Source: Minisyncoccia bacterium
Lineage (GTDB): Bacteria; Patescibacteriota; Minisyncoccia; 2-02-FULL-40-12; IGHO2-01-FULL-4-A
DNA length: 64,000 nucleotides
Direction: 5' to 3'
Assembly: GCA_050015375.1 (NCBI GenBank)
Contig: JBEKBN010000006.1
Location: 454 to 64,453 of the forward strand
Under the pieces are notes generated by a model that saw only the letters and a list, made by a program, of their open reading frames with translations, did no database searches and was not told the origin of the DNA. Both the position numbers and the translations under genes were made by a program. Shown in pieces: positions 12,312 to 60,049 of the stretch (position 1 is its first letter; every line of letters starts with the position of its first letter).

Positions 12312-12875
12312 ATGTCTTGGCAAATCTGTAAGCCGAATTCTGTTCCCCCACTTTTTGAGTTGCCCCAAAAGTGGGGGAGGCGATCATTTATCTGGTCCCT
12401 CGGTTACCCTCGGGATCTAGCGTCTCTTCCCCCACTTTTTAAGTTGCCCTAAAAGTGGGGGACACGGACTTGCACCGGGCAGGGTTTAGCGCGCATCCAT
12501 GTCGCCATGGAGCGGTCCCGTTCGGGGCCTTTTCACCCGTGATCCGCTTGCGCGGACTCGGAATAGTTTCTGTGCCACTTTCCCTGAATTTTGATAAATA
12601 ACTTTTGTCTTAAGAACAAAAACTATCCATCTTATATTCGGTGGCCATTAGCCACTGCCCTGCTTACGCAATCACCAACTGCTAATCTCTAATCTCAAAT
12701 AAAACCATTGGCGATCTTAGTTAACAATTAATGATTGCGTAAGCGGTGTTCGGACTTTCCTCCCTAAAACATTTTGCTTTCGCAAAATGTTCGGGCGATC
12801 AATTCGCAAAGCGAATTGATTTAGCCCCAAATCCAATAAGAATTCGTAGAGTAATCACCCGATTTACCAGGACTT
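12312..12875 (-). ncRNA. rnpB: RNase P RNA (bacterial type A-like) with an extended helix and twin hairpin insertions
   Basis: Reverse complement carries GGGAGGAAAGUCCGAAC (P4 5'), CAGGGCAG, AGUGGCACAGAAAC, CGCGCAAGCGGAUCACGGGUGAAAAGG, CUAAACCCUGCCCGGUGCAAG and ACAGAAUUCGGCUUACAG (J/P4 3'). These align with E. coli M1 RNA. The 5' and 3' ends are approximate. Confidence 0.8.
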
Positions 12876-19891: not shown

Positions 19892-20983
19892 GTGAAAATC
19901 GCATTGGTTCAGGACTATCTTGTCGAATACGGCGGGGCCGAGAGGGTTCTTCAGGCGCTTTGCGAAATTTTTCCGGAGGCGCCGATCTACACTTTACTTT
20001 ATGATGAGAAAGCCAGCGGCCGGGTTTTTCGCGACCGCGAGATCCACACCTCCTTTATCCAAAAGATTCCTTTCGCCCGGCGACACCACCGATTATTCGC
20101 GGCTTTGATGCCTTTGGCCATCGAACAATTCGATCTGTCGGAATTTGATTTTGTTTTATCGAACTCGGCTTCCTTCGGCAAGGGCGTCATCACCAAACCC
20201 AAAACCACCCACATCAACTACTGCATGACCCCGACAAGATTTCTTTGGGACGACAGTCATCGTTTTATTGATGAGTTCAAATTGCCTTGGCTGATCAGAA
20301 AAATGACACCAGCCGTCATCGCTTATCTTCGGATCTGGGACAAAGAGGCCGCCTTGCGGGTGGACGAATTCGTCGCTATTTCCAACCATGTAAAAACCCG
20401 GATCGCCAAATATTATCAGCGCGACGCGAAAGTCATCACTCCGCCGATAGATGTCAGCAAATATCATATAAGCCCCGAAGTTGACGAATATTTTTTAATG
20501 GTCGGCCGCTTAGTTGCCTACAAACGCTTTGACCTGGCGATCCAGGTTTTCAACGCCATCGGCAAACCATTGAAGATCGTCGGCGATGGGCCGGAGCGAT
20601 ATCGGCTTGAAAAAATGGCCAAAAAAAATATCGAATTTCTCGGTCTTGTCTCCGATGATAAATTGCCCGGACTCTACAGCCGCGCTCAAGCGGTGATTTT
20701 CCCCCAGGAAGAGGATTTCGGTTTGGTGCCGCTGGAAGCGATGGCTTCGGGCCGGCCGGTCATCGCGTATCGCGCCGGCGGGGCGCTGGAAACGGTCATT
20801 GATGGCCGGACTGGAATATTTTTTGACGAGCAAACGGAAATCTCGATGGCTTTGGCCATCAGCAGATATTACGAAACCAAATTCAATCCCAACGTTATCC
20901 GGGCCCACGCTTTGGATTTCGACAAATCCATCTTCAAGGAGAAAATTCTCAAATTGCTTGCCCCCACACTCAATCGCGATTGA
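19892..20983 (+). CDS. family 4 (group 1) glycosyltransferase
   Basis: GTG start. GT-B fold with C-terminal motif FPQEEDFGLVPLEAMASGRPVIAYRAGG. The stop codon is supplied by a palindromic element. Confidence 0.85.
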   Translation: MKIALVQDYLVEYGGAERVLQALCEIFPEAPIYTLLYDEKASGRVFRDREIHTSFIQKIPFARRHHRLFAALMPLAIEQFDLSEFDFVLSNSASFGKGVITKPKTTHINYCMTPTRFLWDDSHRFIDEFKLPWLIRKMTPAVIAYLRIWDKEAALRVDEFVAISNHVKTRIAKYYQRDAKVITPPIDVSKYHISPEVDEYFLMVGRLVAYKRFDLAIQVFNAIGKPLKIVGDGPERYRLEKMAKKNIEFLGLVSDDKLPGLYSRAQAVIFPQEEDFGLVPLEAMASGRPVIAYRAGGALETVIDGRTGIFFDEQTEISMALAISRYYETKFNPNVIRAHALDFDKSIFKEKILKLLAPTLNRD

Positions 20984-20992
20984 GTGTGGGGG
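20961..20992. repeat. palindromic element CCCCCACACTCA-ATCGCGAT-TGAGTGTGGGGG (copy 1 of 5) at the GT4 gene 3' end
   Basis: Perfect 12-bp arms. The TGA of the right arm serves as the gene's stop codon. Family copies are at 25056, 55616, 58240 and 60021. Confidence 0.75.
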
Positions 20993-23630: not shown

Positions 23631-25460
23631 ATGCAAAACATCCGCAATTTTTGTATAATTGCTCACATAGACCATGGCAAAAGCACCTTAGCCGACCGGC
23701 TTTTAGAATTGACGGGCACAATTGAAAAGCGCAAAATGCACGAACAATTTCTGGACCAGATGGAATTGGAGCGTGAAAGAGGGATTACCATAAAACTCCA
23801 ACCCGTCCGCATGCAATACGGCGAATATATTTTGAATTTAATAGATACGCCGGGCCATGTGGATTTCACCTACGAAGTTTCTCGTTCGCTGGCGGCGGTG
23901 GAGGGTGCGATTTTACTTGTGGATGCCGCCAAAGGCGTTCAAGCCCAGACACTGGCCAATTTGCATTTGGCGCAAAGACAGAATTTGGTCATTATTCCGG
24001 TCATCAACAAAATTGATCTACCCAATGCCAGAGTGGCCGAAGCCGAAGAAGAAATTTCCAATTTGCTTGCCGTTGAACCGGACGAAATTATCAAGATTTC
24101 CGCCAAGACCGGTGAAGGCGTGGAGAAAGTTCTTGAAGCGGTTGTCGAAAAAATTCCCCCGCCATCTACTCACTACTCACTACCAACTACCAACTATCCT
24201 CGCGCCCTGATTTTTGATTCCGCTTTTGACGCTTACAAAGGCGTTGTCGCTTATGTCAGGATTTTTGACGGCAACTTCCGGGCCGGAGACAAAATTAAAC
24301 TTTTCGCTTCCAAAGCCGAAGCCGAGATAATCGAAGTTGGTCAGTTTAAACCCGCCTTGAGCAAAACCGATTCTATCGGCGAAGGTGAGATCGGCTATAT
24401 CGCCACCGGTTTGAAAAATCCCGGCGATGTCCGCGTTGGTGATACGGTTTTCTCTACAAACTATAAACCACAAACTACAAACTTTTCACCCCTTCCCGGC
24501 TACAAAGAACCGATGCCGGTGGTTTTCGCCAGTTTTTTTCCGGAAAAAGGGGAAGATTATGATCTGCTGAAAGACGCGCTGGGAAAACTGAAATTGACCG
24601 ATGCCTCGCTGACTTATGAACCGGAATCTTCACCAGCCCTCGGCCGGGGTTTTCGCCTTGGCTTTCTGGGTATGCTCCACACCGAGATCATCAGTGAGCG
24701 GTTGCGCCGGGAATTCAAATTGTCGCTGATAATTTCCTCGCCGTCGGTGGAATATCACATTTTGAAAAAGAACGGCCAAGAAATTCCCATCCGTTCGGCA
24801 TCAGAGATGCCCAATCCGAGTTATATTGATAAAATTTTCGAACCGACGGTTGTGCTGGAATTGTTGAGCCCATCTGAATATCTCGGTTCATTGATGAAAC
24901 TTCTTTCCGAAATGCGAAGCTCTTATCTAGCCACTGATTATTTGACCAAGGAAATCGTGATTTTAAAATACAAAGTCCCGCTGACTGAAATTGTGACCGA
25001 TTTTTATGACAAACTGAAAAGCGTCAGTTCCGGTTACGCTTCGATGAGTTATTCACCCCCACACTCATTAGATGAGTGTGGGGGCAAGCAGGATGGCTAT
25101 GAGGAATCTGATCTGGTTCGGCTGGATATTTTGGTGGCCGGGGATTTGGTTGAACCGTTTTCGAGAATGGTTCCGAGATCGCGCGTTCATGACGAAGGCA
25201 AGAGAATTGTCGAGAAGTTGAAGAAAATAATTCCGCGGCAATGGTTCGCGGTGGCGATCCAAGCGGCCATCGGCGGGAAAATAATCGCTCGGGAAACCAT
25301 CAGCGCTTTGCGAAAAGATGTTACCGGTTATCTCTACGGCGGGGATATTACCCGCAAGAAAAAATTATTGGAGAAGCAAAAGAGGGGGAAGGCGAGGATG
25401 AAAGAGGAAGGCAAGGTGAATATTCCGCAGAATGTGTTTCTGGAGATGCTGAAAAAGTAG
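23631..25460 (+). CDS. lepA: elongation factor 4 (LepA)
   Basis: IRNFCIIAHIDHGKSTLADRLL...DTPGHVDF and a C-terminus matching E. coli LepA. Contains three in-frame repeat insertions. Confidence 0.92.
   Translation: MQNIRNFCIIAHIDHGKSTLADRLLELTGTIEKRKMHEQFLDQMELERERGITIKLQPVRMQYGEYILNLIDTPGHVDFTYEVSRSLAAVEGAILLVDAAKGVQAQTLANLHLAQRQNLVIIPVINKIDLPNARVAEAEEEISNLLAVEPDEIIKISAKTGEGVEKVLEAVVEKIPPPSTHYSLPTTNYPRALIFDSAFDAYKGVVAYVRIFDGNFRAGDKIKLFASKAEAEIIEVGQFKPALSKTDSIGEGEIGYIATGLKNPGDVRVGDTVFSTNYKPQTTNFSPLPGYKEPMPVVFASFFPEKGEDYDLLKDALGKLKLTDASLTYEPESSPALGRGFRLGFLGMLHTEIISERLRREFKLSLIISSPSVEYHILKKNGQEIPIRSASEMPNPSYIDKIFEPTVVLELLSPSEYLGSLMKLLSEMRSSYLATDYLTKEIVILKYKVPLTEIVTDFYDKLKSVSSGYASMSYSPPHSLDECGGKQDGYEESDLVRLDILVAGDLVEPFSRMVPRSRVHDEGKRIVEKLKKIIPRQWFAVAIQAAIGGKIIARETISALRKDVTGYLYGGDITRKKKLLEKQKRGKARMKEEGKVNIPQNVFLEMLKK
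24166..24200. repeat. heptamer tract (CTACTCA x2, CTACCAA x2, CTATCCT) in frame inside lepA, encoding STHYSLPTTNYP
   Basis: Five 7-nt units with a CTA anchor. Absent from E. coli LepA at the equivalent PAPQGDPDAPLQ position. Confidence 0.65.
24454..24488. repeat. heptamer tract (CTACAAA/CTATAAA/CCACAAA/CTACAAA) in frame inside lepA, encoding TNYKPQTTNF
   Basis: Same unit as the tpiA tract. About 7 extra residues relative to E. coli LepA. Confidence 0.65.
25056..25084. repeat. palindromic element CCCCCACACTCA-TTAGA-TGAGTGTGGGGG (copy 2) inserted in frame in lepA, encoding SPPHSLDECGG
   Basis: Perfect 12-bp arms with a 5-nt loop. Adds about 11 residues relative to E. coli LepA between GYAS and SDLV. 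Confidence 0.75.
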
Positions 25461-31473: not shown

Positions 31474-31517
31474 ATAACATGTAGATATTGACCATATGGT
31501 CAATATCTACATGTTAT
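31474..31517. promoter_or_regulatory. 44-bp perfect palindrome (ATAACATGTAGATATTGACCAT|ATGGTCAATATCTACATGTTAT), putative operator
   Basis: Perfect dyad 30 bp upstream of the PaaX-like gene, in a divergent region shared with arsR. A near-copy is at 32111-32138. Confidence 0.6.
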
Positions 31518-31546
31518 TGTTTTATAGTTTCTGTTATTATGTATTC

Positions 31547-32113
31547 ATGAAGGCGATAAGAAGAGGAACCCTAGCTTTTAAAATTTTAAAAGGCATTGGT
31601 CTAACGGGTTTGTTTTTAATAAGCATGTCGAACCCGCGTTTTGGGGTTCAGTTATTGACGGGATTTAAAGAATATAACAAAAGGGAGAAACAAAAATTCA
31701 GAGAATCGTTATATTATTTGAAAAAAAGAGGATTGGTAAAAATCATAGAAAACAGTAGCGGCGGCTTTACGGCCAAATTGTCAAAGACCGGAGAAAAAAT
31801 GTTGGAATCTATCGACATTGATTGTCTTGAATTGAAAAATAAGGAATTTGATGGAAAATGGCGCGTGGTTATCTTTGATGTTCCGGTCAGATTGAATATT
31901 AAAAGACACGCTTTTACGGAACGACTGAAAACTCTGGGTTTTATCATGGTTCAAAGAAGTGTATGGATTTGTCCGTTTAGGTGCAGAAAAGAACTGGCGA
32001 TGTTAACCCAATTTTACGAAATTGAGAAATACGTCACATATTTAGAAACATCTTTTGTGGATAACGAAGAAGCGTGGAAAAAAGAGTTTTCACTAATCAA
32101 ACTGGTGGCTTAG
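31547..32113 (+). CDS. PaaX-like regulator: N-terminal winged helix plus a C-terminal Cas2-fold domain
   Basis: SLYYLKKRGLVKIIE (wHTH), then GKWRVVIFDVPVRLNIKRHAFTERLKTLGFIMVQRSVWICPF, which resembles the Cas2/PaaX_C motif (YDV..KRR...L...G.R.Q.SV). Confidence 0.5.
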   Translation: MKAIRRGTLAFKILKGIGLTGLFLISMSNPRFGVQLLTGFKEYNKREKQKFRESLYYLKKRGLVKIIENSSGGFTAKLSKTGEKMLESIDIDCLELKNKEFDGKWRVVIFDVPVRLNIKRHAFTERLKTLGFIMVQRSVWICPFRCRKELAMLTQFYEIEKYVTYLETSFVDNEEAWKKEFSLIKLVA

Positions 32114-32138
32114 ATATTCACCATATGGTCAATATCTA
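32111..32138. promoter_or_regulatory. imperfect 28-bp palindrome (TAGATATTCACCAT|ATGGTCAATATCTA), second copy of the operator-like dyad
   Basis: One central mismatch relative to the 31474 dyad. Overlaps the stop codon of the PaaX-like gene. Confidence 0.5.
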
Positions 32139-36412: not shown

Positions 36413-39400
36413 TTGTTTATGAAAATAAACAAACTTGGGGGGGGGCTTAAGTGGTCGATTTTCGCAACTCTTTTAGCAACCGCTCTAGTAGGCGGATTTT
36501 TTGTACACAATGCCAAGGCGACTGTTAGCACCTGTTCTGATATCACCCTTGGTGTGACTCAAATCACTGCTATCCAAACCTATGCCACCGCTGACAATAC
36601 TTTTGCCGACGGCTGGAAATGGGTTTTCAATGTTACCGTTCCGACTTGCCAAACACTTCTTCAAATGAGATTCGGTGACTGGGTTGGAACCGCTGGCACC
36701 ATTCCAGCCGCGACAAATATTCAATTTTATTCTAATCAATCTACAAATGCAGCCGATGAGGCGCACGCAATAATTATCAGTGCCGCTAATACATATAGTG
36801 GTTTGATGATCCTTTCTGGTGCTGATCTTGATGGGTCAACACCCGGCACCCAGATCCAAATAACAGTTGAAGCGAGAGTTCCAATTGATTCAGCTGGTGG
36901 TTCTTACTCGACAAGTTATGGCATACAATCGAATCCTGCACCGACCGTTCTATTCGTTCTCCCTATCGGTAACATCAATGTTGCTAATGGCACCGCTCTT
37001 GATGCTGTAGGTTTGCCGGCTAATGCTACCGTAGGTTTGAGCAACGGAAACACTCAATTAATGGCAGTCGTTTGGGATGGTGGTACGCCAACTTATGACG
37101 GCACAACAGCTGGCACCTATGCTTTTACAGGTGCATTGACTTTACCTGCTGGTGTTACTAATCCGGACGGCAAAACAGCCAACGTAAACGTAATTGTGGA
37201 ACCAATACCTACCCACACCATTACCTCCTCTGTTGTAGGCGCATCTGTCTTTGGTCCGAAACACGGCACGATTTCTCCTCTCGGTGCAACGACCGTGAAT
37301 GATGGCGACAGCCAGACCTACACGATTACGCCCGATACCGGCTACCAGATTCTTGAGCTTAAAGTGGACGGTGTTTCCACAACGCCGGCCGACAGTTATA
37401 CTTTCACCAATGTCACAACTGACCATACCATTGCCGTGAGCTTTGCCCCGATTACTTATACCTTAACCTATTCCGCCGGAGCCCATGGTTCCATTGTTGG
37501 AACTTCGCCCCAGGCAGTAAATTACGGCGCTGATGGAACAGCCGTGACTGCGACGCCAGCCGAGGGTTATCATTTCGTAGGTTGGAGCGATCAGTCAACA
37601 ACTAATCCGAGAACCGACAACGATGTAACCGGCAATATTGATGTCACTGCCAGTTTTGCAGTTAACCAATATACAATTACTTTTGGTTCAAATGGTGGCT
37701 CAGCCGTAGCTTCCATAACTCAGGATTATGGCTCACCGGTTACTCCACCAGACGATCCAACTCGAGCAGGTTATACCTTCGCCGGTTGGGTTCCAACAGT
37801 TCCGGCAACGATGCCATTAGGCGGAGCGAGTTTAGTTGCCCAGTGGACTGCTGTTGTTGCACCAATCACCCACACTCAAAAGGATCTGACGACTTGGGTT
37901 CCGATTCAGGGTGGAATAACTGCCGATGTAACAATTTCAACAGTAAATAATAAATTCCACGCAGACGGAGTTCCAACTGGATATACTTTGGTGTATTACC
38001 CTAATGTTGGAACTTATGATACCTACACTGGAGAAGTTTATCCTGTAGAGGGCACTAATATGGATCTTCCAATGTCAGATGATTTGAATCGCGGTAAAGA
38101 AGATTACTGCAATAATGGATTTAATCCACACGCAATTCACTGTGATGGCGCTAAGTTGTGGCTTGTTCCAACCGAAGACATATCAACAACAATTAATTCT
38201 GATGGAAGCCAGACATTGGTTGGAGATTGGAATACGATCGCTCCGAATATTTTGTTCGAGACAAATCTGATAACTTATCAAGCAACTCCGATCACTCACA
38301 CCCAAAAGGATCTGAACACCTGGGCTCCACTTCCAAATGGAATAACTGCCGATGTTACATATGACCTGACCGGAGATACTTTCCAAGCGACCGGAGTTCC
38401 ACCTGGATATACTTTGGTGTATTATCCTAAACCCGCAACTTGGACCGGATTGGTCTATTCCGTCATTGGTAATAGCATGACCCTTCCAATGCCAGGTGAT
38501 TTGAATGGTAGTCCATCATCAGATTACTGTACCGTTAGAAATAGTGAGGGGAATTTGGAAAATCCGCATGAAATAATTTGCCAAGGAGCCGCGTTGTGGC
38601 TTGTTCCAACGGGTGAATTAACAGATAACCACGATGGGACTTATACAATTAATTGGGGCACTGCTTCTGATATTTTGTTCGAGACAGACCTGATAAATTA
38701 CACAGCTCCGACTTCTACCCCAAGCGCTAATCTTATTCTCACCGCTCCAGATGCCACAACTATTAATCAATCTGCTTTAGTTCCTGAAACGAGCAACGGA
38801 ATACCCACTGGCGGAAACTCAACAGTTGATACTGCCATCAATGGCCTTAGCCCGATTGCGGTGAGGTTGCAGAATACCGGCGATGCCGCTTCTGCTAATG
38901 TTCGCATCAGCCCGATTGGCGACGCTTCTGGGCACATTCAGTTATGGGCAAAAGATACTTTAGGTAATTGGTATGACATCAATGTTACTGGCTGGGGGCC
39001 AGCCGAAGGTTTTCCAGTGCCAGCCCCATACGATGCCACTACTAATGTCTATGCGATTTCCGACGAAGTAGGATCTTATGACATGATAGCTAATTTGATT
39101 TTGGTAAGTAATTCATCACTCGTTGCGCACACAAAGGGAATAATTACCGTTGCCCCTGCCCCGACCCTTTTGTTTGATACCGGCATCACTGATGGTTCCA
39201 CTATCTTACCGGGTACACTTGCAACTCAGTTCACGATTACAACTACGGGTGTCCCGGGTACGATGCACACGCTTGGGTTAACGGGCACCACAGCAACTCC
39301 AGCTCTTGCAGATGGCAATTATGACTTTAAGCTTGTGGCAACCTCAGACGTGCAAGCCGCTTTGACTTCTTATTTTGGAGCTAAGGCAGGATGGACTTCG

Positions 39401-55256: not shown

Positions 55257-56543
55257 ATGACCGTTTCTGATATAATTAAACAAATGGAGGAAAAAGAAAA
55301 TGAATTGAAATTCCCCAACGGGTTTTTGTGGGGGACGGCCACGTCAAGCTATCAGATAGAAGGTGGAATAAATAATTGCGACTGGGCCCAAGCGAATCGC
55401 GGTCCCTCGACAAGTTCAGGACATCAGATTCCTGATGCTGGGCGCGCTTGCGATAGTTACAATAAATACGAGGAGGATTTTGATATTGCCAAATCGCTTG
55501 GCCAGAACGCCCACCGTTTCTCTATAGAATGGGCGCGGATCGAGCCGGAAGAGGGAAAATTCGACGAGAAAGAAATCGAGCATTATAAAAAAGTGCTGGA
55601 CGCCTTGCGAACTCGCCCCCACACTCAAGATTTGAGTGTGGGGGGAACGGGATTGGAACCATTCGTGACCCTTTGGCATTTCACGCTTCCGGTTTGGTTC
55701 GCGAAAATGGGCGGTTTCGAAAATCCGAAATCACCGGAAATATTTTCCCGATATTGCGAATTTGTCGTTGGCAAAATGGGGGATAGAGTTCACCCTGTTA
55801 AATCCGGCGAAGCCGGTGCCGCGGAGCGGCAATTTAACAGGGTAAAATTCTGGGTAACTATAAACGAACCGATGGTTTATGCCTCGAATGGTTACCGAAA
55901 AGGTCAATGGCCGCCGTTTGAAAAAAATATTTTCAGGTTCATGAAGGTTATCAAAAATCTAATCATGTCGCACAATCTAGCATATGACAAAATCAAGAAC
56001 ATTGATCCTTCGGCTCAGATCGGCATCGCTAAAAATAATATAAATTTTGAGGCAAATTGGAACCCAATCAATCGCCTCTTGTCAAGCTTTCTGAATTTTT
56101 TCTGGAATCGCAGATTTTTGAATAAAATTTCACAGGATTTCATCGGTTTGAATTATTATTTCCACAAAAAGTTCGGGGATAGGGCGAAGTATCCGAAATC
56201 CGACATGGGTTGGGATATTTATCCGAAAGGAATTTATAATTTGCTGATGGAACTGAAAAAATATGGTAAACCGGTTTACATCACCGAAAACGGATTGGCG
56301 GACAAAGAAGACAAACAACGCGCCGATTTCATCCGTGAACATTTGAAATGGGTTTCGAGAGCGATCCGGGATGGCTCTGACTGCCGCGGATATTTTTATT
56401 GGTCGCTTCTGGATAATTTTGAGTGGGCGGAGGGTTACAAACAAAAATTCGGTTTGGTGGAAATTAATTTTGAAACAATGGAAAGAAAGATCAGGAATTC
56501 AGCGTGGGAATTTGCAAAAATTTGTAAAAATAACGAAATATGA
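55257..56543 (+). CDS. glycoside hydrolase family 1 (beta-glucosidase-like) carrying two in-frame palindromic insertions
   Basis: FLWGTATSSYQIEGG, TINEP (acid/base) and ITENGLA (nucleophile). Carries insertions RTRPHTQDLSVGG and HPVKSGEAGAAERQFNRV relative to canonical GH1. Confidence 0.88.
   Translation: MTVSDIIKQMEEKENELKFPNGFLWGTATSSYQIEGGINNCDWAQANRGPSTSSGHQIPDAGRACDSYNKYEEDFDIAKSLGQNAHRFSIEWARIEPEEGKFDEKEIEHYKKVLDALRTRPHTQDLSVGGTGLEPFVTLWHFTLPVWFAKMGGFENPKSPEIFSRYCEFVVGKMGDRVHPVKSGEAGAAERQFNRVKFWVTINEPMVYASNGYRKGQWPPFEKNIFRFMKVIKNLIMSHNLAYDKIKNIDPSAQIGIAKNNINFEANWNPINRLLSSFLNFFWNRRFLNKISQDFIGLNYYFHKKFGDRAKYPKSDMGWDIYPKGIYNLLMELKKYGKPVYITENGLADKEDKQRADFIREHLKWVSRAIRDGSDCRGYFYWSLLDNFEWAEGYKQKFGLVEINFETMERKIRNSAWEFAKICKNNEI
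55616..55644. repeat. palindromic element CCCCCACACTCA-AGATT-TGAGTGTGGGGG (copy 3), in frame in GH1
   Basis: Perfect 12-bp arms. Encodes RPHTQDLSVGG, inserted before the conserved GxEPFVTLxHxxLP block. Confidence 0.75.
55793..55842. repeat. second, distinct GC-rich palindromic insertion (CCCTGTTAAAT-28 nt-ATTTAACAGGG), in frame in GH1
   Basis: 11-bp perfect arms. The loop itself holds two hairpins (CCGGC-GAA-GCCGG and GCCGC-GGA-GCGGC). Encodes about 16 extra residues between GDRV and KFWVTINEP. Confidence 0.65.
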
Positions 56544-57427
56544 TCTGGATCCTTCTGGCAATTCTGTCCCAATTCATCTCCGCCGGCGTTTACATGGCCG
56601 ACAAGTATCTTGTTGGACCCAAAGCCATCGGCCGGCCGGTGGTTTACGCCATCTATGTCTGCTTGCTTTCGGGTTTCGTTTTGGTTTTATTGCCTTTTGG
56701 CGTGGTTTTGCCGCTGACCTGGCCGCTAATTGCGCTTTGTCTGGGGATCACGGTTGCTTTCACGACTTCCCTATTATTTCTTTATTCCGCTCTTAAAACT
56801 TCTGATGTTTCGGATGTGGCGCCGGTCATGGGCGCGATCTCGGCCGTGGCCACATTGGCTTTCGGACTGTATTTTTTGGATTCAATGCTGCCCAGATTAT
56901 TTTTCATCGGCTTTCCGCTTTTGATATTCGGGACTTTTCTGATGTCGCGTTTTCGGTTTAATAAGAAATCCTCCTTTTATGTTATCGCCGCCGGAATTCT
57001 TTTCGGACTTTCATCGATTTTAATAAAAATATTGTTCGGAGAAACCTCATTTCTTAACGCGTTTTTCTGGTCGCGGATGACGAATGTTTTCGGCGCGATA
57101 ATTTTACTTTTGTGGCCGGCGAATTTCAAAGCCGTGTTCAGCAATGTCAAAAGTTCGACCGGCGGAACGAAAATTTTGGTCGTCGGCAACAAAACGCTGG
57201 CCGGTATCGCCTATCTCTTATCGCTGGTGGCAATAAAACTCGGCAATGTTACCGTCGTCAACTCATTGGCCGGTTTTGAATTCGTTTTTATTTTGCTTCT
57301 GGCTTTTATTTTCACTTATAAATTTCCGAAATATTTTCAAGAGGCCGTTCACAACAAAAACGACCGGCTGAAAAAGATCTGGGCTTCGGGTTTGATAATA
57401 ATCGGGTTCGTGATCATGTTCCTATGA
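56540..57427 (+). CDS. hypothetical polytopic membrane protein (about 10 TM)
   Basis: 295 aa and strongly hydrophobic. No motif. Confidence 0.5.
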   Translation: MIWILLAILSQFISAGVYMADKYLVGPKAIGRPVVYAIYVCLLSGFVLVLLPFGVVLPLTWPLIALCLGITVAFTTSLLFLYSALKTSDVSDVAPVMGAISAVATLAFGLYFLDSMLPRLFFIGFPLLIFGTFLMSRFRFNKKSSFYVIAAGILFGLSSILIKILFGETSFLNAFFWSRMTNVFGAIILLLWPANFKAVFSNVKSSTGGTKILVVGNKTLAGIAYLLSLVAIKLGNVTVVNSLAGFEFVFILLLAFIFTYKFPKYFQEAVHNKNDRLKKIWASGLIIIGFVIMFL

Positions 57428-58509
57428 AGAAGCACAAAAAATATTTTTCAATTCCCATTATCCTTTTCTTGATCCTTTTGGTTTTAACCTTGGCTTGGAA
57501 TTTGCTTTCCATCAGGCCGGTTCCCGAAAAAGTAAATTACGGCGTTTCGTTCAGCGTTTTTCATTCCAACGAACTCAATCTGGATTGGAAAAAAACATAT
57601 TTGGCGATCTTAGACGATCTTAAGGTCAGGAACTTGCGGCTTACCGCTCATTGGCCGCTGACCGAGCCGGCCGACGGCAAATACGATTTCTCAGAATTGG
57701 ATTTTCAGATAAACGAAGCCGATAAACGCGGCGCGACCTATATTCTGGCCGTCGGCCGGCGCCTGCCCGGCTGGCCGGAATGCCATGTGCCGGATTGGGT
57801 TATGAATCAAGAATCACAAATCACGAATCAAGGTGAAAAAACTGATTTTGAGAACCAAAAGTTATTGGAATATATTCAGACGACCGTTGAGCGTTACAAA
57901 AATTCCCCCGGTCTGAAATATTGGCAAGTCGAGAATGAACCGTTCCTAGGATTTTTCGGCCGTTCGAGCTGCCAATTGACCGACGAGAATTTTTTCAAAC
58001 AGGAGATCGCTCTTGTCCATAAACTCGATCCGACCCATCCGGTTCTGGCGACCGACAGCGGCGAGTTCGGCTATTGGTATCAGGCCTACCGCGACGGTGA
58101 TGTTTTCGGCACCTCCTTGTATCTGTATGTTTGGTGGCGGGCGCTTGGCATCGGCCCCTTGCGTTATCCCATCGGGCCGTCGTTTTTCCGAGTGAAGCAA
58201 AATGTGGTTGATTTTATCGGTTGTGTCTTGGGCGATTCACCCTCACACTCAATTTTTGAGTGTGAGGGCAAGCCGACAATTCTCATTGAACTGGAAGCCG
58301 AGCCCTGGCTTTTAACACCGATCGTTGACGCGCCGATGGCGACTCTCCTTGACCGGATGGGGATTGATAAATTCGAAACCATGATCCAAACCGCCAAAGA
58401 AGCCGGTTTTGGCGACCAATATCTCTGGGGCGCCGAGTGGTGGTATTGGATGGAACAAAATGGCCATCCGGAATTTTGGCAGGCGGCGAAGCAACTTTTT
58501 AACCAATAA
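57424..58509 (+). CDS. glycoside hydrolase, clan GH-A (GH5/GH113-like)
   Basis: Signal/TM N-terminus, then YWQVENEPF (acid/base NEP) and LIELEAEPW (nucleophile Glu). The family is not resolved. Confidence 0.55.
   Translation: MKKHKKYFSIPIILFLILLVLTLAWNLLSIRPVPEKVNYGVSFSVFHSNELNLDWKKTYLAILDDLKVRNLRLTAHWPLTEPADGKYDFSELDFQINEADKRGATYILAVGRRLPGWPECHVPDWVMNQESQITNQGEKTDFENQKLLEYIQTTVERYKNSPGLKYWQVENEPFLGFFGRSSCQLTDENFFKQEIALVHKLDPTHPVLATDSGEFGYWYQAYRDGDVFGTSLYLYVWWRALGIGPLRYPIGPSFFRVKQNVVDFIGCVLGDSPSHSIFECEGKPTILIELEAEPWLLTPIVDAPMATLLDRMGIDKFETMIQTAKEAGFGDQYLWGAEWWYWMEQNGHPEFWQAAKQLFNQ
58240..58268. repeat. palindromic element variant CCCTCACACTCA-ATTTT-TGAGTGTGAGGG (copy 4), in frame in the GH-A hydrolase gene
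   Basis: Both arms carry a compensatory change (C to T paired with G to A), so pairing is preserved. Encodes SPSHSIFECEGKP. Confidence 0.75.
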
Positions 58510-59956: not shown

Positions 59957-59963
59957 TCCATCG

Positions 59964-60001
59964 AAGAGCGGCCCGCTCGCGAGCGAGCGGGCCGCTCTTC
60001 A
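59964..60001 (+). terminator. GC-rich 17-bp perfect stem-loop after htrA (no U-tract)
   Basis: GAAGAGCGGCCCGCTCG-CGAG-CGAGCGGGCCGCTCTTC. Probably a transcript-end or processing structure. Confidence 0.4.
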
Positions 60002-60020: not shown

Positions 60021-60049
60021 CCCCCACACTCATGCATGAGAACGGGGGC
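60021..60049. repeat. degenerate intergenic copy (copy 5) of the CCCCCACACTCA palindromic element
   Basis: CCCCCACACTCATGCATGAGAACGGGGG has a left arm identical to the family and a decayed right arm. Confidence 0.5.

Follow-up and report, generated by a model that had tools for sequence, protein, structure and literature searches.

Among described systems, the Rickettsia palindromic elements (RPEs) are among the closest counterparts of a short palindrome that enters genes in frame. They are ∼150 bp long and are known from Alphaproteobacteria, where ten families have been distinguished, every one of which encodes its own conserved peptide (Ogata et al. 2000, 2002, summarized in PMC10969869). 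Here, we describe a palindromic element of 28 to 29 bp in a 64-kb stretch (the window) of a metagenome-assembled genome (MAG) of a Minisyncoccia bacterium (Patescibacteria), which contains five copies with the arms CCCCCACACTCA and TGAGTGTGGGGG around a loop. We conclude that the element is probably a minimal, terminal-repeat-only, non-autonomous transposon. As with RPEs, the palindromic repeats lie in frame in unrelated housekeeping genes and add a fold-compatible peptide, in a host with a reduced genome and a host-dependent lifestyle. Unlike RPEs, the element is 4 to 5 times shorter, is read in a frame that varies by gene (two open, one with a stop), has a 4-bp target duplication, is mostly intergenic, and belongs to Patescibacteria; no sequence relationship is expected. 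The likeness to RPEs drawn in the original prediction, which was made from the letters of the window, is apt as an analogy rather than as membership, given the differences in size, lineage, and frame use.

The copies in the window and the genes that host them are as follows.

19892-20983, + strand: GT4-type glycosyltransferase gene, with the 20961 copy at its 3' end
20961-20992: copy at the GT4 3' end, perfect, loop ATCGCGAT; palindrome with perfect 16-bp arms
23631-25460, + strand: lepA (elongation factor 4, 609 amino acids), host of the 25056 copy
25056-25084: LepA copy, perfect 12-bp arms CCCCCACACTCA and TGAGTGTGGGGG, loop TTAGA
55257-56543, + strand: glycoside hydrolase family 1 (GH1) gene, host of the 55616 copy
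55616-55644: GH1 copy, perfect arms, loop AGATT
57424-58509, + strand: GH-A-type hydrolase gene with a weak Glyco_hydro_42 match, host of the 58240 copy
58240-58268: hydrolase copy, variant CCCTCACACTCA-ATTTT-TGAGTGTGAGGG
60021-60049: decayed intergenic copy, canonical loop TGCA, right arm TGAGAACGGGGG with three adjacent substitutions, flanks TTAA and CCAA

The coordinates and arms of this five-copy family agree with those predicted from the window alone. Searching the window for CCCCCACACTCA with at most 2 mismatches gave 10 arm matches, compared with 2.85 ± 1.68 in shuffled sequence, and none of 100 shuffles reached 10. The matches form four tight inverted pairs, one decayed pair, and a lone, unpaired half-site at 37867 that probably arose by chance. 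Folded as single-stranded DNA, the four intact copies reached -14.7 to -16.5 kcal/mol (z scores of -7.5 to -8.4). The fifth copy, correctly called decayed and intergenic, reached -6.8 kcal/mol and lies 65 nt past an HtrA-like gene and 50 nt ahead of the next open reading frame (ORF). Beside it, directly 3' of the HtrA-like gene, is a separate perfect hairpin with 18-bp arms (GAAGAGCGGCCCGCTCGC..GCGAGCGGGCCGCTCTTC, positions 59963-60000). No Rfam family was matched at any copy of the element or at the conserved hairpins that host some copies.

The family extends well beyond the window. The exact element (loop of 3 to 10 nt) was found in 37 stretches of a species-representative genome collection, 35 of them labeled Patescibacteria, and in 87 stretches of a metagenome collection; among viral contigs, one carried the full element. 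Lineage labels of the genome matches included Saccharibacteria, Yanofsky-, Falkow-, and Azambacteria, Parcubacteria, and Paceibacterota, with seven stretches coming from one genome. The two matches outside Patescibacteria, in Jeotgalibacillus (L027) and a gammaproteobacterial MAG (L031), look like chance terminator hairpins. Removal of duplicates left a nonredundant set of 102 copies, the reverse of the single-copy outcome that would have counted against a repeat family. The canonical form, CCCCCACACTCATG joined directly to CATGAGTGTGGGGG, is a perfect 28-bp palindrome centered on TGCA and accounts for 46 of the 89 copies not classed as intragenic. Its inverted arms are perfect over 12 to 14 bp, and it has no coding capacity. 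Size variants range from 27 to 63 bp, and longer relatives of ∼130 to 150 bp share the terminal CCCCCACAC (L084 2748-2889, L012 1642-1789, and L124 8019-8151). Density in the loci is ∼1 copy per 13 kb, reaching five copies on one 13.7-kb contig (L099), and unpaired arms amount to only a handful in ∼970 kb. This spread, the mainly intergenic 28-bp canonical form, and the duplication and length filter described below go beyond the original prediction.

Evidence for insertion comes from the flanks. Identical 4-nt flanks bordered 48 of the 102 copies, compared with 5.4 when partners were shuffled (maximum of 15 in 5000). Moving the register by one base, or requiring 5-nt repeats, left only 2 to 3 matches, and 17 different tetramers were in use. 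Both sides follow the consensus Y-N-N-R: on the left flank, 94% of copies have Y at -4 and 97% have R at -1, and on the right flank, 91% have Y at +1 and 89% have R at +4. A symmetric target consensus of this kind is typical of dimeric cut-and-paste enzymes. An empty and filled pair was recovered in a conserved intergenic region, where L112 reads ...CCCTCG CTTG CCTCC... and four other loci (L091, L061, L083, and L081) have the 28-bp element between two copies of CTTG. One of the longer relatives (L084 2748-2889) likewise shows a clear 4-bp duplication, CTCA/CTCA.

These features invite comparison with the piggyBac superfamily, which has a 4-bp target duplication, terminal repeats of 12 to 19 bp that are usually CCC...GGG, and precise excision (PMC5381638), and for which IS1380 is the prokaryotic outgroup (PMC10813416). 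The element resembles piggyBac/IS1380 in its 4-bp duplication, CCCCC...GGGGG termini, and 12- to 14-bp repeats, and differs in that its target is not TTAA specific: the duplicated tetramer is TTAA in 2 of 48 cases, TTAA or one mismatch away from it in 28 of 48, and CAAG, CTTG, or CTCG in 12. We treat the resemblance as a lead by analogy. Precise excision of the piggyBac type would explain the patchy presence of the element among orthologues.

Three side observations concern the surroundings of the copies. Those with a TTGA duplication (L009, L030, L056, L114, L026, and L085) are often followed by CA, such that the element abuts a TTGACA (-35-like) hexamer; in L085, the arm plus the TTGACA-type flank is repeated. 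About 1 in 10 copies lie ≤100 bp from a contig end (e.g., L007, L008, L023, L065, L087, L101, and L076), and L007 and L008 overlap across a copy by exactly the assembler k (99), an indication that assemblies break at insertion polymorphisms or because of the hairpin. Finally, two conserved long intergenic hairpins (e.g., CCGAAATAACAGGTAACCC...CGACCTATTATTTCGG) bear the element at their tip in some genomes (L091 ∼1350-1560, L061, L083, L081, L112 8500-8700, and L018 5050-5250; L058, L074, L118, and L047). These hairpins may be new RNAs or larger palindromic elements.

Most copies are intergenic, and the number inside ORFs varied from 13 to 21 of 102 with the gene-calling rule. Among 13 copies classed as intragenic by a crude ORF test (well inside long ORFs), the element length plus 4 was a multiple of 3 in 10, versus 16 of the 89 others (Fisher p = 4e-5); the frame-compatible intragenic copies had loops of 5, 8, 17, or 23 nt. 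When the element plus 4 bases was removed in silico, a long ORF reappeared for just 2 of ∼89 non-intragenic copies, each a marginal case, and there are essentially no insertions that break the frame of a gene. The copy in KsgA, present in 3 of the 8 closest orthologues, is 28 bp long, yet the net gain is still 33 bp (+11 residues), so the frame can be rescued by one extra flank base as well as by the loop. We conclude that being in frame is not a property of the element and instead results from a filter on the total length inserted (33 bp). Since a 32-bp insertion (28 + 4) would break the frame, selection would keep only 33-bp variants, with either a 5-nt loop or an extra flank base as in KsgA. 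Removal of the hairpin at the RNA level was considered and rejected, as ORFs run intact through the element and intragenic copies out of frame are essentially absent. Other in-frame hosts, recognized by sequence motifs, include BipA-, DNA polymerase I-, and endonuclease IV-like genes, as well as a DNA polymerase III delta-like gene that was also identified by Pfam. In L099 (184-1041 and 11400-12560), three copies lie in frame in one delta-like gene and another in an endonuclease IV-like gene, just before an apparent conserved CxDTCH motif.

Alignment with orthologues showed that the copies in LepA, GH1, and the hydrolase each add exactly 33 bp, or 11 residues, in frame, in line with the ∼11 residues predicted for these three genes. 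Translation across the copy reads ...SMSY-SPPHSLDECGG-KQDGY... in LepA, ...ALRTR-PHTQDLSVGGT-GLEP... in GH1, and ...LG-DSPSHSIFECE-GKPT... in the hydrolase, where the 33-bp block encodes about DSPSHSIFECE. An example of a peptide that spans a junction is ...SMSYSPPHSLDECGGK. A common peptide motif, (S/R)P(P/S)H(S/T)xxxE(C/S)(G/E)G, had been proposed for all three; it does not fit GH1, which is read in another frame. The resulting signatures are PPHS..ECGG in LepA and the hydrolase, PHTQ..SVG in GH1, and PTL..stop in GT4. Given this variation in reading frame, the peptide is a by-product of the DNA. The GT4 gene indeed takes its stop codon from the element, as anticipated: its last 7 codons (APTLNRD) and the stop are element derived, with the stop TGA (20981-20983) beginning the right arm, and the syntenic orthologue in L006 lacks the element and ends ...FEFVSELT before its stop. 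A copy near a gene end can supply a new stop in this way because the right arm starts with TGA in one of its three frames.

For LepA, the empty site could be defined at the DNA level. In orthologue L040, TAT is followed directly by GAA CAA GCG, compared with TAT, the 33-bp block, and AAG CAG in the window, a difference of exactly 33 bp; this comparison used P0004, and the closest orthologue by protein is P0002. The inserted block (∼25053-25085) consists of TCA, the 29-bp element, and C. In an alignment of the best 40 proteins, the ancestral SMSY-E(P/Q)x-(G/D)Y became SMSY-SPPHSLDECGG-KQD-GY, a gain of 11 residues, with an insert in P0001 and P0023 and none in the other 38. A HMMER comparison with Thermus EF4 (5imq) likewise placed an 11-residue gap at the insert. 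The LepA protein is 100% identical to a database entry, 'MAG: translation elongation factor 4 [Minisyncoccia bacterium],' and this identical protein, including the insert, is recorded on 4 contigs, of which the two displayed come from ENA and Logan assemblies. Among the best 120 homologues, it alone has the intact peptide signature. In a 70% identical orthologue (L041), the copy at the same site is decayed, with an expanded loop. It had been reasoned that orthologues bearing the peptide but not the palindrome would speak against an insertion; the opposite was found, as the closest orthologues lack the insert. As a separate observation, other short insertions occupy the same LepA loop (site ∼25053) in P0008, P0009, P0015, P0034, and P0003, including ARSAGSGQAG, APSTGSGRA, SPPAGGA, and SIANG. 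They may be other palindromic families or remnants, and the SPP..GG type could be a collapsed copy.

The remaining insertions are similarly confined. In GH1, PHTQDLSVGGT was absent from all 44 orthologues displayed, and its signature occurred in 0 of the 119 other homologues listed; in the hydrolase, the 11 residues were absent from 39 of the 39 homologues shown. Predicted models bear out the expectation that the insertions sit in loops. In the AlphaFold model of LepA, the insert forms a coil between strands 471-474 and 490-493, with a predicted local distance difference test score (pLDDT) of <50 at 479-487. In GH1, the model shows it as a barrel loop that joins helix 95-110 to strand 125-129, and pLDDT is <50 at 113-120. 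In both modeled proteins, the intragenic copy falls in a low-confidence loop. The GH1 gene also contains a second, unrelated in-frame structured insert at 55789-55846, which encodes HPVKSGEAGAAERQFNRV, adopts a Y-shaped three-way fold (-23.5 kcal/mol, z score of -7.3), and occupies another low-confidence helix-to-strand loop. A similar peptide is found at that position in P0126 and P0141, and unrelated insertions occur in at least 7 other orthologues; this second site is an insertion hot spot.

The original prediction singled out the 58240 copy, in which a C-to-T change at arm position 4 is matched by a G-to-A change at the pairing position of the other arm, and the wider family bears this out. 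Among second copies in the loci and the window, arm variants are common and often mirrored: CCTA/TAGG (five copies), CTTA/TAAG, CCCA/TGGG, and CCCT.../...AGGG. The last of these is the 58240 change, and L074 and L118 have it too, on a different arm background. Across 14 distinct arm types, collected with at least 10 of 12 paired positions required, both sides were changed at 5 of the 12 stem pairs (12 cells versus 3.1 in shuffled data, a value reached in 0 of 500 shuffles). In KsgA, the element and its TTCA/CAAG flanks (4 to 6 flank bases) are 100% identical in three genomes selected for perfect arms, and the surrounding coding DNA is ∼67 to 70% identical.

Several observations weigh against a minimal transposon. 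A Pfam scan of 50 ORFs in the 64-kb window identified no transposase, the ∼1 Mb of flanking loci contained no protein-coding element bounded by matching ends, and the viral contigs likewise yielded no transposase gene with such ends. At 28 bp, the element is also smaller than the shortest miniature inverted-repeat transposable element (MITE) mentioned in one review, a 39-bp decayed copy (PMC10969869). An identical 4-bp duplication is absent in 9 of the 13 intragenic copies, and the nonidentical flank pair TTCA...CAAG, which recurs in at least five genes unrelated to one another (LepA, the hydrolase, KsgA, the BipA-like gene, and locus L090), is not predicted by a plain duplication model. Mirrored arm changes are no automatic outcome for ordinary terminal repeats, and as the copies were gathered by exact arms, arm conservation is partly a product of collection. 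A 2-bp duplication (TT-CA-element-CA-AG) was tried as an account of the TTCA...CAAG copies and rejected; it predicts a gain of 30 or 31 bp, and LepA, the hydrolase, and KsgA all gained 33 bp.

The search for a mobilizing enzyme bears directly on the comparison with MITEs. Like Correia, ERIC, QMITE, and Chunjie (PMC10969869), the element has terminal inverted repeats and target duplications, is multicopy and noncoding, has size variants, and occasionally fuses in frame with ORFs. It differs in having essentially no internal sequence, just the two repeats. A related autonomous element with the same ends, which is expected of a MITE, was not found in the window, the ∼1 Mb of loci, or the viral contigs. 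Pairs of CCCCACAC ends 60 to 4000 bp apart enclosed, in all loci, only mini-copies, the ∼130- to 150-bp relatives, and one housekeeping segment in L076 (signal peptidase, HisRS-like, and HIT genes). A generic scan of the loci for terminal repeats with duplications returned nothing with the element's ends (CCCCCACAC...GTGTGGGGG). The 14-mer CCCCCACACTCATG had 71 single matches in the viral contigs, none of them paired, which a rough estimate finds consistent with chance. Among the papers searched, none gave the sequence in a relevant setting, and none dealt with MITEs, repetitive extragenic palindromes (REPs), or REP-associated tyrosine transposases (RAYTs) in Patescibacteria.

An all-against-all BLAST of 607 locus ORFs revealed one recurrent mobile-type family, the Y1 (IS200/RAYT-like) transposases, with genes on these element-bearing contigs:

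L061/L073, 9165-9863: Y1_Tnp gene
L077, 8955-9812: Y1_Tnp gene
L115, 6397-7083: Y1_Tnp gene

The element could accordingly be REP-like and moved as a single-stranded hairpin by a Y1/HUH RAYT-type transposase. Like REPs and the hairpin-forming REP doublets (REPINs), it is a short GC-rich hairpin scattered through the genome, the same community contains RAYT-like genes that have palindromes of their own, and the mirrored arm changes fit hairpin recognition. The Y1 genes of L061/L073 (9154-9899) and L115 (6355-7126) are flanked by, and contain, 21- to 29-bp perfect palindromes (TGTTGAAGTCnGACTTCAACA; CCATGTCAAGGCGnCGCCTTGACATGG), built with 10- to 14-bp arms and a 1-nt center, and some are in frame within the transposase gene. 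These look like REP/RAYT-type systems in Patescibacteria. The flanks of the RAYT palindromes are inverted rather than direct, however, and the element lacks a conserved GTAG-type foot. The element does not border any of the three Y1 genes, no further Y1 gene lies near any of the ∼100 copies, and three such genes in ∼1 Mb is no obvious enrichment (no background frequency was measured). REPs differ further in being extragenic and imperfect, with a conserved foot tetranucleotide and no target duplication, whereas the element is found inside genes and has an exact 4-bp duplication, including in the empty and filled pair. To our knowledge, neither HUH transposition nor REPs make a target duplication. 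These bacteria therefore host several short-palindrome systems, with no link of the element to a Y1 enzyme, and we consider movement by such an enzyme unlikely.

A host-functional hairpin kept by selection, with insertion being merely its mode of spread, is a second explanation that we consider improbable. Such a hairpin could be a terminator, an mRNA-stabilizing hairpin, or a recombinase or nucleoid-protein site, given its 11-6-11 layout like dif/Xer. Consistent with this idea, when 73 distances to the closest gene 3' end were measured, about 30 placed the copy ≤35 nt from the stop codon, the stem covaries, the same 24 arm bases occur under different class- or phylum-level labels, and the KsgA element and flanks are identical amid diverged coding DNA. 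The element thereby resembles SPRITE and other terminator-like mobile hairpins, which are GC rich and often lie just past stop codons. It differs in that most copies have no T tract and many are inside coding sequence: only 22 of 88 non-intragenic copies have a stem whose next 8 nt include at least 5 T residues (or, on the other side, A residues). Intrinsic terminators, with a GC-rich stem and a T tract, were not the general pattern, and neither window copy was scored as a terminator. Host function also leaves the copies inside the LepA, GH1, and KsgA loops unexplained, and the KsgA loci were chosen for their perfect arms. Furthermore, the LepA copy in L041 and the 60021 copy in the window have decayed, and most second copies in the same loci are variants.

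Two other explanations have little standing. Patescibacteria are widely reported to have competence and pilus genes, and Neisseria uptake-sequence pairs form terminator-like hairpins, so the copies might be a DNA-uptake signal sequence arranged in inverted pairs, of the kind found in Neisseria or Haemophilus, that has become enriched through dependence on DNA uptake. This is very improbable: the abundant single motif copies expected of uptake sequences were not seen, the arms are almost always in tight pairs at ∼1 per 13 kb rather than ∼1 per kb, and what is seen are discrete insertions, marked by target duplications and empty sites, rather than motifs grown by point mutation. Chance hairpins or an assembly or sequencing artifact, for which the two matches outside Patescibacteria are the only indication, can be practically dismissed given the exact 24-base pairs, the shuffling results, the LepA insert in independent ENA and Logan assemblies, the preserved frames, and the dozens of studies and habitats represented.

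Returning to a minimal transposon, the element would consist of two 12- to 14-bp terminal inverted repeats placed back to back, without coding capacity. It inserts at 4-bp Y-N-N-R sites and duplicates those 4 bases. The 4-bp staggered-cut signature, taken with the symmetry of the target consensus, suggests a DDE-type (cut- or copy-and-paste) transposase that would act in trans. IS1380/piggyBac, IS5, and IS701, families with 4-bp duplications, are candidate leads for this enzyme; none was found. Maintenance of the stem may reflect a need for the two ends to fit a single enzyme, or correction of or selection on the hairpin itself. Chemistry of the piggyBac or coupling-sequence type, in which 4 donor bases are carried along, would fit the Y..R flanks with mixed TTCA...CAAG pairs, the gain of the element plus 4, and the patchy, apparently precisely reversible presence. 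We speculate that 4-base donor carry-over combined with precise excision (piggyBac or Tn916-type coupling sequences) would explain TTCA...CAAG and the patchy presence among orthologues. More tentatively, and with considerable doubt, we suggest a broader reading: a 28-bp, two-ends-only transposon, the smallest mobile DNA element yet recognized, that is common to the Patescibacteria radiation, is moved by an enzyme, remodels (repeatedly and in a reversible manner) the surface loops of the core proteins LepA, BipA, KsgA, Pol I, and clamp-loader delta, and has a stem kept by selection or self-templated repair.

Elsewhere in the window, two near-identical 21- to 22-bp palindromic sites, TGTAGATATTGACCATATGGT (31474-31517 and 32111-32138), lie on either side of a gene with a PaaX/Cas2-like domain (31496-32113) and look like putative operators for that regulator. 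An RNase P RNA match on the minus strand (12313-12810) spans 498 nt compared with a 367-position model, and this RNA probably carries insertions.

The genomes of Patescibacteria are very small and are commonly regarded as poor in mobile elements. A mobilizing enzyme, if found, could yield a compact DNA-insertion system, and the element's position near contig ends may help explain fragmented assemblies. The element would set a lower bound for a transposable unit at ∼12 bp per end. Each in-frame copy would also be a natural experiment that marks an insertion-tolerant protein loop, and for annotation and phylogenomics, indels that set one lineage apart in a marker like LepA may have arisen by insertion of the element and not by slow divergence. 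The findings point to a tiny element active across Patescibacteria that would write 11-residue loops into translation factors, an rRNA methylase, and replication proteins.

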